Below are positions 8,597 to 63,979 of a stretch of 64,000 nt of DNA, one piece after another (the first letter of the stretch is position 1; each line of letters begins with the position of its first letter). Below the pieces are notes generated by a model. The model saw only the letters and a list, made by a program, of their open reading frames with translations. It was not told where the DNA came from and made no database searches. Source of the DNA: Escherichia phage vB_EcoM_LNA1; sequence record MZ311863.1; one strand, written 5' to 3'. Made by a program: the position numbers and the translations under genes.

Positions 8597-8854
8597 TTTT
8601 TACTCCCTCTAAAACCATTAACCTCATACACTACTGCAAAAAATTATAAAAAGCAAGTTGACAATGCACTTGACAAGGTGTTAATCTTTGCGAAGTGGGT
8701 TTTTACTTAAAAGGTTACTTAACAGTTTAACTATACAGATACTTTAAAACTCTTAAAAGATTATTTAATAGCTTTTAAAAAGCTTTAAAGTATAACGTAT
8801 AGAATACGTTAAGATAAAAGATTAAAACTTAATAGTTACTTAAAAGAGGCTTAC

Positions 8855-36886: not shown

Positions 36887-37771
36887 ATGAAACCAATGTT
36901 TAAGTATCTTGGTGGTAAAACAAGAATACTGAAAGAATATGAGCGTTTAGGTGTCTTTCCAGACAAATGTGAAAACTTCTATGACCTGTTTTCAGGTGGT
37001 GGTTCAGTAGCTATTTGGGCTTATAACAGATACCCAGAGGCAAAAGTGTTTATTAATGAGATAAATAAACATATTATAGGTCTTTACACAACTTTCAGAG
37101 ATGACTATGAAAACTTCATGGAAGAATTTGAGTACCTGTCAAAAAGGTACTTAGCCTTACCTATGCAGGAAGAGTATGCCGTGAAAGGCCAGCGTCATAA
37201 CCGTCTACGCTATAAAATGTATTACAGTGTAAGAGAGGAACTTCTTTTGCTTGGTGAAGAAGGAGCATATGACTACAGGTACTATGCCAGACAGTTTTTC
37301 CTTCAAAAACTAAGTTTTGGTGGTGTATGGCAGACTACTAAAGAGATGAAAGGTCACTATGCAACACCTTGCGGGTATTTGCTGGAAGAAGAGATTTTCT
37401 TCACAAAAACTAAGAAGTCACTGTCTGAGTTCTACAGTTTTATCACTGATGAGAGGGTGATACTTAGCAGTGAACCTTATAACAGGGTTGACATAAAACA
37501 TGGAGAAGGCACAGTTATCTACTGTGACCCCCCGTATATCAACACCAACCAGAAATATGGTGCAAAGTTTGACATTGAGATGTCTGTAAAATTATGCGAA
37601 GATATGATTTCTTGGGGGGAGTTAGGCTCTAAAGTTTTGATGTCAAACTCTCAGTGGGATGGATGGGCAAACCTAATTCCTGAAAATTTTAACTTGACAG
37701 AGGTTAGCCATTCATACACAATACATGCACAGAGAAGCAAAGATATTAACGAAGTAATTATTCACAACTAA
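36887..37771 (+). CDS. dam: DNA adenine methyltransferase (Dam-like, N6-A)
   Basis: 294 aa; N-terminal FKYLGGK and catalytic DPPY in VIYCDPPYINT. Confidence 0.75.
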   Translation: MKPMFKYLGGKTRILKEYERLGVFPDKCENFYDLFSGGGSVAIWAYNRYPEAKVFINEINKHIIGLYTTFRDDYENFMEEFEYLSKRYLALPMQEEYAVKGQRHNRLRYKMYYSVREELLLLGEEGAYDYRYYARQFFLQKLSFGGVWQTTKEMKGHYATPCGYLLEEEIFFTKTKKSLSEFYSFITDERVILSSEPYNRVDIKHGEGTVIYCDPPYINTNQKYGAKFDIEMSVKLCEDMISWGELGSKVLMSNSQWDGWANLIPENFNLTEVSHSYTIHAQRSKDINEVIIHN

Positions 37772-37782
37772 GGTATCAAGTT

Positions 37783-38595
37783 ATGGCAAACAGCATCAAT
37801 GTAGCACTGAATGGCAAGGTTGTTAAAATTCACACTAAGATTATCAGTGTCGAGGATTTTCTTAATGAAAAACGTTACAAAGAAAACCCTCGTCAACGAA
37901 ATACACTTAAGCGTCTGAAAAGCAAACACCTTAATGGTGACGTATCACCAGACCAAACAGTAGTCCATGTGGCTAAGTTCGGGAGTTCACTGTTCATCAT
38001 TGATGGGCACTCACGTAGAGAGGCATGGAAAGTTGGTAACCTGACACGACCAGAAAACTTGATTGCAGTTATATACCATGTGAACTCTATATTGGATGTC
38101 ACAGATTTGTATACACATTTTGACTCTGAGTTAGCAAGAGAGAAGCCTTCAGAAGTTTATTACGGAAATATGAAGATGATTTCTTTCAACCCAGAGTCAG
38201 AACTGATGAAAGCATCTTGGGCAACTGCTATTAAATATGTTGCTGCATACTACGGTGTACAACAGGTCTCTAACACTGAAACAGTTAAATATCTTAATGA
38301 CTTTAAAAATGAGCTGGAACAAATTGATTCTCTTGAAGTACAGCTTAAAGGTGTAGTAAACGCAAAACGGAAATATTCTTCTGGGATTCGTGCAGCAATG
38401 TTAATTACACTACGCCTATATGGTGATGCTGCATTTTCCTTTTGGGAAGACTATAATGATTACTGTGAAGGTATGTCTAACAAATATGTTACAGAGGTAT
38501 ACCAACTGGCATTACAAGCTGGTCGCGGAGCACAGGCTGATAAGTTGTTGATGAATCAAGCGATTTCACTTGTCAACTATTACAGTCAAGAATAA
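37783..38595 (+). CDS. hypothetical protein, possible ParB/DGQHR-like nuclease domain
   Basis: 270 aa; FIIDGHSRREAW resembles DGQHR/ParB N-terminal motif; weak. Confidence 0.3.
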   Translation: MANSINVALNGKVVKIHTKIISVEDFLNEKRYKENPRQRNTLKRLKSKHLNGDVSPDQTVVHVAKFGSSLFIIDGHSRREAWKVGNLTRPENLIAVIYHVNSILDVTDLYTHFDSELAREKPSEVYYGNMKMISFNPESELMKASWATAIKYVAAYYGVQQVSNTETVKYLNDFKNELEQIDSLEVQLKGVVNAKRKYSSGIRAAMLITLRLYGDAAFSFWEDYNDYCEGMSNKYVTEVYQLALQAGRGAQADKLLMNQAISLVNYYSQE

Positions 38596-41867: not shown

Positions 41868-41955
41868 AGTAATTTACAAGGGGCTTAAAAGTTGATATCT
41901 TAAGCCCCAGATAAAGAGTTTTACCACATCAACCCTTAAACTAGGAGATTCAAAA
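41868..41955 (+). promoter_or_regulatory. leader cassette type B (copy 1, divergent)
   Basis: ggggcttaaaagttgatatcttaagcccc hairpin then AGATAAAG...CTTAAACTAGGAGATTCAAAAATG. Confidence 0.45.
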
Positions 41956-46709: not shown

Positions 46710-46958
46710 ATGGCAACTATCCGCGCAACTGTTAACGCTTATGGCTGTTATACTCTGGACGTTAAATTTGATATTGGTGGGACTGATGAATGTTTTTCCT
46801 TAGTGAAGACAGTTATCAAGCAAGTTATTCCAGACTATAACCCTACTGATGACTTCTGGAAAGATGCCGTAAAAGAGGCCATAAACGATGAGCATCACTA
46901 TCACTATTGGGGCGATTTAATTGTTTCCCTGTACTACAGCAAACAAGGTTACAACTAA
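46710..46958 (+). CDS. small hypothetical protein (cassette gene)
   Basis: 82 aa. Confidence 0.4.
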   Translation: MATIRATVNAYGCYTLDVKFDIGGTDECFSLVKTVIKQVIPDYNPTDDFWKDAVKEAINDEHHYHYWGDLIVSLYYSKQGYN

Positions 46959-46968
46959 TCGACGCAAC

Positions 46969-46990
46969 GGGGCTAAATAGCCCCAGATAC
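46969..46990 (+). terminator. putative intrinsic terminator
   Basis: ggggctaaatagcccc hairpin after last cassette gene. Confidence 0.4.
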
Positions 46991-48640
46991 CTTCAAAGCT
47001 CCTTTTCATAGGGGCTTTTTTACGTCTTATCGAATCCCTATACAATCCCTTTCCCTTTCCTTTCCAGAATCTCTCCCACTGATTCGATAGAATCTATCTC
47101 AGACCTTAAAAAGCAATAACTCTGTAGCTTATCCTATAGCCTTTTATCAAATCAACTTAAATATAAGCCCATAACCCGAAAGGGAAGGGCAACCATTTAA
47201 ACGCCCTATAAAGCCCTATAACGGCCTTTTTAACCTAACTTAAGGGATTGCATTACCTCACCCTTAAAAGCCCTTTATAAAGCTTCCCAGAGCCTTAAAA
47301 GAATCTTATAAGGGTGTAAGCTTTATCATCTCGTTAGTATTCTTGTGAATAACTAAAAAGGGCTTGTCAGTGTCTTAAAAGTATGTTATAGGGGCTATAA
47401 AGTTACTTCAAAGTTACGTGATAGATAGCTTAAAAGTTACGTAAATGCTAGCCCCCTTAACATTTTCTTAACAATTTCTTAACAAACCCTACATAGTTAT
47501 GCTTGTTAGGGACTTGTTAGCAACTTGTTAAATCTCTGTTACAACCATGTAAAAGCCTTGTAAGAACCTTTGACATAGCCTTTAAAGCTCCTGTAAAGCC
47601 CTATAAAGGGCTATCCATACAGTTGAGGGGTAAATACTAGGGAGAGCCTGAAAAGAGCCTATAAAGGGCTATAGAGAGCTTTTAAAAGGGCTATTTAGAG
47701 AGTCACTAAGAGGGAAAGGGAACGATAAGAAAAGAATAGTGACCATGTTAATAGCCTGTTAAAAAGATTAAACACTTGTTAGGAACTTGTTAATTATCTT
47801 AACAAAATAACCCTTTAAAATTAACTTGTTAACTCTTGTTAGTCATCTGTTAAGACTCTGTAAAGACCATATAGCAACTGTTAAGGAACTGTTACCCTCT
47901 TGTTAAAACTGTTAAAAATCTGTTAATACCTCTGAAGAGATGTTAAAAAGATGTGAGAACTGTTGAGAGATTGTTAATGATATTTTAAAATTTTGCAAAG
48001 GGGGTGTTAAGGAGCTGTTAAGGGCTACCAAGCAGATATACATCTTCTACAGATATTTTTCAGTTCCTTCAAAAACCCTAAAAAATGACTTGATAGTCCT
48101 ATTTTATAAAAATTTTAAAAATCTGAATAATTACCCAGACAGTCTTTTAAAAATACAGGCATAAACAGGCTTATAAGATACCTTGTTAGTACCGTGTTAG
48201 ACCTTGTGAGATAAGGTCTGTAAAGATATTCCTGTTAAGTTTGTTAAAACAGTCTATATAGAGGCTTAGTAATACCTAGTGAACACCTATAGAGGGTAAC
48301 ATAGCTTACCTAGAGATTAAGAGGTGTATAGGAGCTTCTAAGAGGGTGTAGAGGTATGGTTAAGGTGATTGTATAGGTTGTTAAGAAGGCTTGTTAGAAG
48401 AGTGTTTAGAAGGACTATACAGAGGGGCTATTAAGACCACTAGATAGATACTAAGATGCTATATAGTACTATATAACTATATAGAGAGTAAGATTAAGAA
48501 GGTTGTTAAGAAGGATAGATATTTTATTCACATATGATGGTGACCCAGAGGTTGGGACAACCGATAAAATTTTATAAAAAATATAAATTTCGTAAATTTT
48601 ACTCAATAAAAAGCCCCCAATTAAGGAGGCTCTTAAGATA
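46985..48640. repeat. ORF-free region dense in short direct repeats
   Basis: no ORF of 60 aa or more on either strand across about 1.65 kb; more than 30 copies of YTGTTAR (cttgttag, ctgttaa, ttgttaa), plus recurring CTTAAAAG and TATAAAGGGCTAT words. Confidence 0.6.
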
Positions 48641-48642
48641 TT

Positions 48643-49236
48643 TTAAATCAGTGTTTCCAGAACTGTTTTTAATGATGACTTGGTTGTCTGATAAAAATGA
48701 GTAAATCCGTTGTTGTTATCGAATATCTGCATCATGATATCATCTCCCTTGATTGGGTACACTCGGATATCATAGTGAAACCCATTAAAGACAGCAGAAC
48801 CATTACAGAACACACTAAAGTCATCCACTGAGATGTACTCTTCATGACCTGTGATTTTTATACAGATGCCTTTACTCGGTCTCTTAGGGTTGATATCTTC
48901 CATCACAGACATACTCTGCCCACCAAGAGATACCATAGTGACCACTTTACGGTTCTTCTGTTTAAAGTACATCTTAACTTTCTGCAAAGTGTCTTCATAG
49001 AACGGATAAGACCTTTCTACAAAGATTCCTTCAAGTGGCTCTTTACCTTTTACAATACCTCTGGTATGACGTACTGCAAAGATAATTTGTTGGAACCAGT
49101 CAAGATTTTCTTCGGAGAGTGCTTCTCGAACATCACTCCAGTCAAGCACTAAGTAGTTACCTTCAACTTCTTTTAAGTTATCTTTTTCCATATCTATCAC
49201 ACCGTTATCGTAAAACTTGGTAGGCTGGTACTGCAA
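48643..49236 (-). CDS. hypothetical protein
   Basis: 197-aa ORF, first gene of minus-strand block. Confidence 0.4.
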   Translation of the reverse strand: MQYQPTKFYDNGVIDMEKDNLKEVEGNYLVLDWSDVREALSEENLDWFQQIIFAVRHTRGIVKGKEPLEGIFVERSYPFYEDTLQKVKMYFKQKNRKVVTMVSLGGQSMSVMEDINPKRPSKGICIKITGHEEYISVDDFSVFCNGSAVFNGFHYDIRVYPIKGDDIMMQIFDNNNGFTHFYQTTKSSLKTVLETLI

Positions 49237-55958: not shown

Positions 55959-56350
55959 AGATAATCCTCTTGTCTTCTGTAATTTTGAAAGAACAGGTAC
56001 AGACCAATTTCAGAGGATGAATAGTAGAGTAACTCTACCCTTTTTGATTCCTTACAGTGATTGGTGTTTTTACCTTTCTTCGGGTTATTTGATTTTCTCA
56101 TTAAGTCTCCTTTGTAGAACAAGGCAGACCTACAGCTTTAAGTAAGATGGTACAGTAATCCATACAACAAGTCAAGAACTATTACAAGTTAAAAAAGTTG
56201 TTGACAAAGTACTTGACAAGGTGTAGGCTTATAAATACTTAGAAGATAACTTAAAAGGTTCCTCTAAAAAGGCTATTTAAACAGATATCTTTCTGGATAT
56301 CTATCTTTTATCTTAAAAGCCTTTTAAGAGGTCTTATAAGAGGCATACCA

Positions 56351-62552: not shown

Positions 62553-62629
62553 ATAGTCCAAGTAGCTTATATGGTTAAAGCGCGTGTCTGAAAAACATGA
62601 GAAGAGGGTTCAAATCCCACTGGACTACC
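62553..62629 (+). tRNA. tRNA-Phe (GAA)
   Basis: anticodon arm cgtgt-ctgaaaa-acatg, acceptor tagtcca/tggacta; 3' end assignment uncertain. Confidence 0.55.
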
Positions 62630-62646
62630 AATTTCAAAGGTGCTTA

Positions 62647-63381
62647 ATGAAAGAGATGACAGAACAAGGTAAGGAGATTTTTAATCTCTTAAAAACCGGT
62701 AAAGGGTTTTCTAACCCGCTTATTACTGGTGCAGCAGTTCTCGGTGGAACCGTAGCTGCCTCTACATCACTTGTAAGCTCTATTAGCTCTGTAACAGACC
62801 CTACAATAAAAGATAAGCTTGTTGCTGCTGGGCTTACAACAGTCCTTCTAAACAGCTTTACAACAAGCCTTACAAGCACTACAGCAACTACTAAGACCCT
62901 AACAGACTACGGTCAAAAGTCTATTGATGAGTTTTCATCACGTATGCAGGTAGCAAAGGGATACTCCAATGTTATGGGTGCAGCAGGGGAACAAGTTGGT
63001 TGTACACCATTCAGTGGTATTATGGGTGTTGCTACAGAGTATGGTCAAAAAGCTATTGGCATGATGAACAGTACACTAGATAGTGTTAATGGTGTGTTAA
63101 GTGACTTGCAAGACGCTATTGATGAGGGTCTTGATACTGTTTCTGATTTAGCTAATCAAGCTGTTAGTAAAATTAATGAAGGCATTTCAAAGATTACAGC
63201 TTATGCAGATGAAGTTGTGCAGATGATTGAAGAAGAAGCTGCCCTTATTGCAGAGTACCTTAAAACGAATATTAATGGGTTCTTAGCAGGTATCTTACCA
63301 GACTGGTTTGATGATGCCTGTAAAACTGGTGTAATTGACACTATTGCAACACCAGAAATGAAGAGCGCATTACAGAAATAA
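62647..63381 (+). CDS. hypothetical Ser/Thr-rich protein
   Basis: start moved to internal Met (MKEMTEQG) because the 5' part of the ORF overlaps tRNA-Phe. Confidence 0.4.
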   Translation: MKEMTEQGKEIFNLLKTGKGFSNPLITGAAVLGGTVAASTSLVSSISSVTDPTIKDKLVAAGLTTVLLNSFTTSLTSTTATTKTLTDYGQKSIDEFSSRMQVAKGYSNVMGAAGEQVGCTPFSGIMGVATEYGQKAIGMMNSTLDSVNGVLSDLQDAIDEGLDTVSDLANQAVSKINEGISKITAYADEVVQMIEEEAALIAEYLKTNINGFLAGILPDWFDDACKTGVIDTIATPEMKSALQK

Positions 63382-63778: not shown

Positions 63779-63979
63779 ATGAGCGAGAACGTTTATAAAG
63801 AACTTTATGAAGCTAACAAGAAGTTAGAGTTTATGCAGAATACTATCATGGCAATTGCAGATAGATTATCTGTAGCAACAGGTATTGATATTAAAGAAGC
63901 ATCTATGGATGCACTTCTTGATGCTGTTGATGCAAAGTTCGAAGTTAAGAAAGAAGAGACTGCTACAGACTCTGAATAA
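63779..63979 (+). CDS. small hypothetical acidic protein
   Basis: 66-aa ORF. Confidence 0.3.
   Translation: MSENVYKELYEANKKLEFMQNTIMAIADRLSVATGIDIKEASMDALLDAVDAKFEVKKEETATDSE

Follow-up and report, generated by a model that had tools for sequence, protein, structure and literature searches.

Phased 11-bp word arrays at a gene-free region of Escherichia phage vB_EcoM_LNA1 that very probably represents the junction of its genome ends

The 64,000-nt stretch of Escherichia phage vB_EcoM_LNA1 (sequence record MZ311863.1) analysed here, referred to below as the window, contains between positions 46985 and 48640 a region without a single open reading frame (ORF) of 60 codons or more, as had been reported in an earlier note made from the sequence alone. 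The longest ORFs inside it would code for 45 aa (48469-48606) and 43 aa (47912-48043), both on the minus strand; a 56-aa ORF on the plus strand (48534-48704) extends beyond its edge. The region is bordered by a block of plus-strand genes, which stops at 46958, and by a block of minus-strand genes, whose last ORF is 48643-49236. It matches 256 phage records, nearly all of them of Felixounavirus, at ca. 85-91% identity and with no consistent gene there, and by its sequence the window is that of a Felix O1-like myophage of this genus. Comparison with the equivalent locus of related phages, a check proposed in the earlier note, finds no conserved gene in more than 200 relatives or in other genera. 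The subject of this text is the internal structure of the region, its relation to the physical ends of the phage chromosome and the putative role of its repeats.

The region is saturated with short repeats. The heptamer YTGTTAR occurs in it 21 times, against a mean of 1.0 and a maximum of 7 in 1000 dinucleotide-preserving shuffles and 0.7 copies per 1656 nt of the remaining window, so that the repeat density, for which a k-mer test against shuffled sequence had been suggested, lies far above the composition-matched expectation. The count of more than 30 YTGTTAR copies given at that time was too high for exact copies, and 30 or more are reached only with looser variants (35 copies of YTRTWAR). 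On the plus strand of the region 28 TGTTA words stand against 5 TAACA. The word CTTAAAAG, of which several copies had been noted, is present four times (0.2 expected in shuffles), while TATAAAGGGCTAT, thought to occur in at least three near-identical copies, has two exact ones, at 47602 and 47660, plus near copies. Both clusters singled out in the earlier note, 47490-48030 and 48180-48420, are real, and the first of them corresponds to the terminal repeat described below.

The spacing of the words, which had been described as irregular, is in fact periodic: its mode is 11 nt, and the autocorrelation of identity at lag 11 equals 0.400, where control chunks reach 0.270 +/- 0.015 (z 8.9); harmonics of this signal appear at 21-22 and 32. 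Many period-11 arrays are also called by TRF. The named words are sub-families of a degenerate unit, CTNNNNAG, found in 53 copies (15.5 expected) and comprising a core of 7-8 nt and a spacer of ca. 4 nt, ca. 11 nt in all, and the whole region is built of such degenerate units of ca. 11 bp. The 11-nt register is local, with runs of 3-8 units, phase slips between them and 52 units situated in runs of three or more. Because the phase slips separate these runs, the Fourier peaks are spread over 10.4-11.7 nt, and the local register is the only robust signal. Across the 64 kb, the TGTTA clusters and the lag-11 signal are confined to this region. A CRISPR array can be rejected, as it was before, now on account of the unit size, since such an array requires near-identical repeats of 24-48 nt with unique spacers of similar length. 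A resemblance of the words to IHF-like or Pho-box-like sites was set aside, key positions of the consensus sequences being different.

The nature of the region is indicated by relatives whose records hold both genome ends. Pr103Blw (MW481326) opens and closes with an annotated direct terminal repeat (DTR) of 581 bp, the first 581 nt of the record being the same as the last 581 nt. This repeat corresponds to positions 47451-48029 of the window (88% identity), and the last plus-strand gene and the first minus-strand gene adjacent to the ends of Pr103Blw are the same genes that flank the region in the window. Exact DTRs are also present in CRP22 (579 bp), ZX4221 (591 bp), and ECP2307 (592 bp). 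The four phages have in common the junctions GTTACGTAAATGCTA/GCCCCCTTAACA and GTTAAGGGCTACC/AAGCAGATATACAT (the slash marks the DTR boundary), which in the window fall at 47450/47451 and 48029/48030, respectively; the identity of the boundary sequences in all four records holding both ends points to fixed, non-permuted ends. At least eight further records (I14.1, E9, Ro111lw, SPJ41, NBEco005, MET-P1-301, REP10, and HP1) begin or stop at these points or no more than ca. 20 nt from them. HP1 is a Citrobacter phage of another genus, Mooglevirus, and its GenBank record contains a 570-bp repeat_region. Since the DTRs, the boundaries, and the flanking genes of the relatives all map onto it, the ORF-free region is very probably the collapsed junction of both physical chromosome ends, with the DTR present once. 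Judging from the same homology, the phage packages a linear DNA whose ends are fixed and carry a short exact DTR. The earlier note, which had listed DNA packaging or injection control among four candidate roles, next to a replication origin, a binding-site sponge, and a long structured ncRNA, pointed to the right part of the genome, but the junction of the physical ends and the DTR went unrecognised.

The existence and the length of the DTR in Felix O1-like phages have already been published, and what is added here is its internal architecture and the exact boundary motifs. Terminal repeats of 581 bp determined with PhageTerm are given for Pr103Blw (PMC8303462), a DTR of 613 bp for Ro111lw (PMC6454146), and one of 608 bp for UAB_Phi87, whose ends were mapped by Bal31 digestion and run-off sequencing and whose terminase phylogeny agreed with the packaging type (PMC4837284). 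Direct repeats at both termini are likewise reported for Mooglevirus HP1 (PMC9120918), and a DTR for Kolesnikvirus (PMC11984208). The published repeats of UAB_Phi87, Ro111lw, Pr103Blw, and HP1 represent the same element as that of the window, at the same place and with the same boundary sequences. In UAB_Phi87 the boundary motifs lie 614 bp apart; its record, JN225449, is not opened at the physical ends, and the experimentally determined ends were linked to the window through the related locus L013 and the sister record UAB_69. The latter annotates a DTR of 618 bp, each end of which is placed 2 nt further out than the window-type boundary, and the DTR boundaries in the window are good to ca. 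2 nt. In the accessible portions of the DTR literature searched for this group no mention is made of 11-bp word arrays and how they are phased, of word symmetry at the termini, of a quantized DTR length, or of conservation between genera, and the Felix O1 and wV8 genome papers and a Danish wastewater survey contain nothing on this region.

The junction comprises the following elements:

46969-47024, plus strand: rho-independent terminator with tandem hairpins and a U6 run, closing the plus-strand block transcribed toward the right genome end.
46985-47450, no strand: right-end unique non-coding flank, situated in virion DNA just inside the right-hand DTR copy.
47433-47450, plus strand: conserved motif AAGTTACGTAAATGCTA just outside the left DTR boundary, a candidate cut recognition site.
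47451-48029, no strand: DTR of 579 bp, in a single copy here and at both ends in the virion, assigned by homology to the DTRs of relatives.
47454-47486, plus strand: word block at the left end of the DTR, made up of three TTAACA words at 11-nt intervals and oriented against the main array; an arm of the terminal inverted repeat.
47575-47740, no strand: middle part of the DTR, where TAAAG-type words occur together with small palindromes (AGCCCTATAAAGGGCT, CCTATAAAGGGCTAT); a purine-rich stretch comes next.
47745-48029, plus strand: main array of TGTTAAG words, occupying the right half of the DTR, with 16 TGTTA and ending in the right inverted-repeat arm (47992-48024).
48030-48042, plus strand: conserved motif AAGCAGATATACA just outside the right DTR boundary, a candidate cut recognition site.
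48030-48640, no strand: left-end unique non-coding flank, with 7 TGTTA, CTATATAG and CTATAGAG words, and two AT-rich tracts.
48605-48634, minus strand: rho-independent terminator with a 10-bp stem and a U-run, closing the minus-strand block transcribed toward the left genome end.

The word families are divided at the DTR boundaries: the DTR and the left flank contain (C/T)TGTTAAGA, and the right flank CTTAAAAG and CTATAAAG. Accordingly, TGTTA, TAACA, and CTTAAAAG are present in 1, 0, and 4 copies in the right-unique flank, in 20 (plus strand), 4, and 0 copies in the DTR, and in 7, 1, and 0 copies in the left-unique flank. The right flank, whose homologue in Pr103Blw lies between the last gene and the right DTR, consists of 11-nt runs of CTTAAAAG, CTATAAAG, and CTTATAAG type words (unit runs at 47263-47312 and 47330-47381) and is nearly devoid of TGTTA. 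At its inner edge, GTTACGTAAATGCTA is identical in Pr103Blw, CRP22, ZX4221, ECP2307, and the window. In the centre of the DTR, arrays of period 11 and 22 are called by TRF at 47579-47694, and the array at 47745-48029 contains the densest TGTTA windows of the entire 64 kb. The left flank, located in Pr103Blw between the left DTR and the first gene, is the best-conserved part of the region (conservation of 0.95 at 48030-48420) and starts with AAGCAGATATACA, which is identical in all Felixounavirus loci examined and in the Erwinia phage phiEa104; its AT-rich tracts lie at 48100-48135 and 48565-48600. The sequence CTTGTTA/GCCCCTTGTTAAAT, similar to the left boundary TGCTA/GCCCCCTTAACA, is found in most relatives (L003, L005, L007, and L032 among them) ca. 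69-91 nt inside the DTR; in the window its place is taken by CTTGTTAGCAACTTGTTAAAT.

Of the four TAACA words in the DTR, three are situated at its very start, 11 nt apart, and its first and last 33 nt (47454-47486 and 47992-48024) form an imperfect terminal inverted repeat, 73% complementary. Read inward in the 5' to 3' direction, the left end is G CCCCC TTAACA n5 TTAACA n5 TTAACA, and the right end, on the bottom strand, GGTAG CCC TTAACA n5 TTAACA n5 TTTGCA n5 TTAAAA n5 TTAACA. Both physical ends thus begin alike, with a G, a short C-run, and TTAACA words 11 nt apart.

Transcription of the two adjacent gene blocks runs outward, to the physical ends, and is halted in each case by a terminator, which protects the junction against read-through. 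The fold of 46960-47030 has a free energy of -26.7 kcal/mol (z -5.2), and the terminator of the minus-strand block is matched by a terminator scan at 48628-48614; terminators are annotated at the equivalent places in AYO145A. These features bear on the possibility that the region codes for a long structured non-coding RNA (ncRNA), as raised in the earlier note, or for a protein-sponging one. It is long, gene-free, and conserved, its repeated words could titrate an RNA-binding protein, and the RNA folding z-scores of the DTR are -2.7 and -2.9 for the two strands. However, the minimum-free-energy fold pairs the DTR ends on both strands, and equally well, because the first and last 33 nt of the DTR are an inverted repeat, a DNA-level property. 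Moreover, the terminators on both sides face inward, the search of Rfam gave no match (the best E values, 0.27 and 0.44, both falling on the flanking terminators), sigma-70-like promoter sites are not above chance (11 versus 8.1 +/- 2.6), and conservation follows the division into words and spacers, not paired stems. We therefore consider an ncRNA extremely unlikely.

Conservation was evaluated in an alignment of 16 distinct copies from Felixounavirus, which share 78-90% identity with the window. Segment means range from 0.80 to 0.96, and the non-coding region is conserved to the same degree as the coding DNA on either side. At the 21 YTGTTAR sites, conservation amounts to 0.99-1.00 for the five core positions and to 0.75-0.83 for the spacers, and for the CTNNNNAR cores the value is 0.942 versus 0.866 outside them (p ca. 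1e-10 in the 16 relatives). Indel lengths concentrate at 10-12 and 21-25 nt. The length of the DTR varies across 21 genomes from 579 to 658 bp and is quantized at 11 bp, the best period tested (mean resultant 0.79, Rayleigh p ca. 2e-6, the p-value being only indicative because the genomes are related). Length classes ca. 11 bp apart are formed by 579-582, 591-592, 601-603, 612-614, 623, 633, 638, and 658 bp (related loci L001-L026, Pr103Blw, CRP22, ZX4221, and ECP2307). As this comparison of relatives shows, the word cores are under purifying selection and the spacers are not, and the arrays change their length in whole units. Gain and loss of whole units, with DTRs of such different lengths among close relatives, is also what replication slippage and unequal recombination in dispensable end DNA could produce as a neutral by-product, with no sequence-specific function of the words. 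Nevertheless, near-complete conservation of the cores next to drifting spacers, conservation of the whole region at the level of coding DNA, and the persistence of the word and the layout in the genus of phiEa104 despite barely alignable sequence make a neutral origin very improbable.

In other genera of Ounavirinae, represented by Suspvirus SUSP2, Mooglevirus, and the Shigella Sf15/Sf19 group, the region is kept at 76-79% identity and has the same statistics. In phiEa104 (Kolesnikvirus, same subfamily) only ca. 120 nt can be aligned, around the right boundary and including AAGCAGATATACA. Nevertheless, a 1430-bp gene-free gap is present there between convergent genes, with a lag-11 identity of 0.36, 21 TGTTA words, and the unit consensus (C/T)TGTTAAGA, as in the window. 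The DTR of phiEa104, ca. 440 bp, was set independently by the start and end points of other Kolesnikvirus records. Its left boundary, TTTTACGCTATGGTTA/GCC (TTACG..TA/GCC), is homologous to that of the window, and the right one is marked by /AAGCAGATATACA. Reversed TAACA words are found at the start of this DTR as well, and its terminal inverted repeat has a sequence of its own, TTAACAT(C/A)TCTGCAACATT; the terminal word symmetry is kept in three genera. In contrast, the right-flank word of phiEa104 differs, TTCTAA occurring there 12 times and nowhere else in the gap. Because phiEa104 keeps TGTTAAGA and the boundaries but has a TTCTAA flank, the TGTTAAGA array and the boundaries are, on the evidence of these alignments, subfamily-wide, and the right-flank word is lineage-specific.

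A comparable arrangement is found in T7, an unrelated podovirus of Autographiviridae, as opposed to the Ounavirinae myovirus analysed here. The T7 junction (NC_001604) is 737 nt of non-coding DNA composed of a right-unique part, a 160-bp DTR, and a left-unique part, and contains 20 TAAAG-type words (CCTAAAG) with a lag-13 identity of 0.40. Both junctions are therefore non-coding, share the order of a right-unique segment, a short exact DTR and a left-unique segment, and carry a dense short A/T-rich word at a constant spacing. They differ in the word (TGTTAAGA with CTTAAAAG-type flank words here, CCTAAAG in T7), in the period (11 and 13 nt, respectively), in the size of the junction (1.65 kb versus 0.74 kb) and of the DTR (579 bp versus 160 bp), and in the position of the array, which here fills the DTR itself, while the regular array of T7 sits beside the DTR, just inside the left end. 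T7 also has promoters in its junction, and none are evident here. As the word, the period, and the position differ, the arrays of T7 and of the window are analogous and not homologous. The packaging specificity of T7 has been located within 5% of the genome termini (PMC3276506).

Taken as a whole, the region is probably a T7-type concatemer junction, whose arrays would be putative protein-binding sites serving the recognition of the ends and packaging. A specific mechanism in which the words are bound and direct packaging can be proposed by analogy, tentatively and with somewhat less than even confidence. Replication would produce concatemers with one DTR between genomes, as in T7-type phages. 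A packaging nuclease would introduce one nick at each DTR boundary, in the top strand on the left and in the bottom strand on the right, in both cases a few nt 5' of the first TTAACA word, and strand-displacement synthesis would then duplicate the DTR, leaving a copy at both ends of each packaged genome. The two resulting 5' ends begin with G, a C-run, and phased TTAACA, which fits one recognition factor acting at both boundaries. Words placed one helical turn apart and mostly in one orientation, a pattern characteristic of such binding, would be sites for a protein that either wraps the DNA or assembles head-to-tail along a single face of it. Such a binder, a recognition factor resembling a small terminase, would mark the junction for the terminase and fix the cut positions, and the distinct word family of the right flank would set one side of the junction apart from the other and thereby determine the direction of packaging.

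Several known systems offer parallels to such a factor. The parC site of plasmid R1 consists of 11-bp iterons bound by ParR, and Pho boxes are 11-bp direct repeats on which PhoB binds head-to-tail. Like the arrays described here, both have a core of 7-8 bp and a variable spacer of ca. 4 bp, in one orientation and once per helical turn. Their sequences are different, and here no partition or response-regulator genes lie nearby, ca. 50 units occur in runs of three or more, and the arrays are located at the genome ends; the resemblance is a mechanistic analogy only. In the cosB R sites of lambda and the pacL and pacR boxes of SPP1, repeated elements lie by the terminase cut site and the small terminase positions the nuclease. 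The likeness consists in short repeated elements, putative binding sites in the present case, adjoining the cut site. Lambda and SPP1, however, use cohesive-end or headful packaging and only a handful of sites, and for this phage group the annotations of relatives show no small terminase.

A partition site of the ParB/parS or ParR/parC type was considered and rejected. The product of 37783-38595, labelled ParB-like in the earlier note and named there as a DNA-binding protein to be assayed, yields no Pfam domain at E<=0.01, of ParB or any other kind, belongs to a PHROG of unknown function, and gives spurious PDB matches only, so the label is unsupported; no partition genes are present in the annotation of the relative E9. 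The gene (plus strand) directly follows that of a D12-class N6-adenine DNA methyltransferase (36887-37771, plus strand, E 3e-23).

The arrays could also serve as a loading platform for an end-organising Ounavirinae protein, a functional stand-in for the missing small terminase, with the length of the DTR set in protein-sized steps of 11 bp. In such a ruler, a head-to-tail filament extending from the inverted TTAACA block to the motif at the other DTR boundary would define both nicks. This extension is speculative and, in our estimate, rather unlikely; if true, it would be a ruler-like specification of the terminal repeat of a kind not described for any DTR phage.

A number of observations weigh against the reading of the region as a packaging junction with bound words. 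The DTR of this phage is deduced from homology, the window holds a single copy, and most end calls of the relatives come from PhageTerm or assembly ends rather than from wet-lab mapping. The distance from the cut site to the first word is 6 and 8 nt at the two ends here and 6 and 19 nt in phiEa104, and a single symmetric recognition rule is therefore not exact. No word-binding protein was found among the neighbouring and candidate ORFs or in the Pharokka annotation of E9, in which the sole candidate binder is one 'transcriptional regulator' located far from the ends, and no small terminase is present in the annotations of relatives, including the full Pharokka annotation of E9. The ORFs neighbouring the region have no Pfam domain; Pfam and PHROGs searches with ten neighbouring or candidate ORFs revealed only domains of unknown function and a D12 methyltransferase, and PDB sequence searches for binder candidates yielded nothing useful. 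By synteny with E9, TerL lies just past the window end, and a 66-aa ORF (63779-63979, plus strand), which in relatives is directly upstream of the TerL start, is a small-terminase candidate by position. Structure prediction (pLDDT 83) gives a hairpin of two helices plus an acidic tail, a fold that offers no DNA-binding support, and its homologues are near-identical only. Furthermore, CTTAAAAG is enriched elsewhere in the genome too (16 copies on the plus strand versus 2.1 expected) and may have a second, regulatory role apart from packaging. Finally, we know of no established function for the comparable repeats of the T7 junction, and the T7 analogy therefore supports the location and not the mechanism.

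The same phased TTAACA words near the tip of both physical ends, and the filling with words of a DTR that is present at both, would also be expected if the words bound a protein, from the virion or the host, by which the end is protected against exonucleases or injection is paused or controlled, one terminal repeat being the first DNA to enter the cell. The insulation of the region from transcription is in keeping with such a function, which is compatible with a packaging role and may coexist with it. Injection control has been proposed for the repeat-rich injection stop region of the T5 terminal repeat, and DnaA boxes are part of the T5 injection signal. In the window, however, DnaA boxes are not enriched (24 versus 20.8 expected, with two one-mismatch sites in the region), the literature searched does not mention a transfer of DNA in two steps for Felix O1-like phages, and the asymmetric word families of the flanks fit better a directional process acting on concatemers. 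Control of DNA entry or protection of the ends is thus regarded as improbable.

The lack of enrichment in DnaA boxes also leaves without specific support the replication origin suggested in the earlier note. As an additional or main role of the region, it would make the 11-bp repeats iterons of a phage initiator and the two AT-rich tracts unwinding elements. Direct repeats of one orientation at helical spacing do resemble iterons, and the flanking terminators would protect an origin. Yet there is no recognisable initiator gene adjacent, the neighbours being devoid of Pfam domains, the GC skew here merely tracks gene orientation, and an origin does not account for the change of word family precisely at the edges of the DTR. 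An origin therefore seems quite improbable, and recognition of the ends in packaging remains the preferred role of the arrays.

Some further observations concern the repeats and genes in the rest of the genome. Small clusters of CTTAAAAG are located at 8700-8850 and 56250-56340, in the two gaps of diverging gene orientation, and other copies in ribosome-binding sites or terminator loops. The element GCCCCAGATA, listed in the Felix O1 paper as a 57-bp direct repeat, has five exact copies, all on the plus strand (41904, 42376, 43447, 44240, and 46980) and all in the block of small genes at the right end, and six copies with one mismatch (1.5 expected). At 41876-41913 and 46969-46989 it supplies the 3' half of a hairpin of the form GGGG-loop-CCCC, with AGATA directly after it, and some of the loops hold CTTAAAAG or CTGTAAAG; the copies probably make up a hairpin family with an intergenic terminator or processing function. 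Very small genes (25-55 aa), labelled 'hypothetical protein', are annotated in the terminal non-coding DNA of E9 (PP886229, 241-1157 and 86655-87450), JH2, LMP33, ULIM9, and UAB_69; none recurs from record to record, and they probably result from erroneous gene calling. A 265-aa ORF situated between the tRNA cluster and the terminase region (62584-63381, plus strand) gives a match to DUF7217 (E 9e-87) and a weaker one to a PHROG whose annotation reads GTP-binding domain.

What the earlier note observed is real, but most of it is accounted for by something already known, the termini of a short-DTR phage. The recognition and duplication of the ends in such phages are poorly understood outside T7, and in T7 itself the role of the junction repeats is, to our knowledge, unsettled. 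Felix O1-like phages are widely used in the typing of Salmonella and E. coli, in biocontrol, and in therapy, and hundreds of their genomes have been deposited with an arbitrary start and with the junction left blank or filled with spurious small ORFs; the exact boundary motifs would allow their correct orientation and annotation. The word TGTTAAGA at 11-bp spacing offers a countable and conserved handle in the search for the recognition protein and in the construction of packaging-competent vectors or transducing plasmids, and the quantization of the DTR length at 11 bp provides a simple, testable prediction on how the ends are set.

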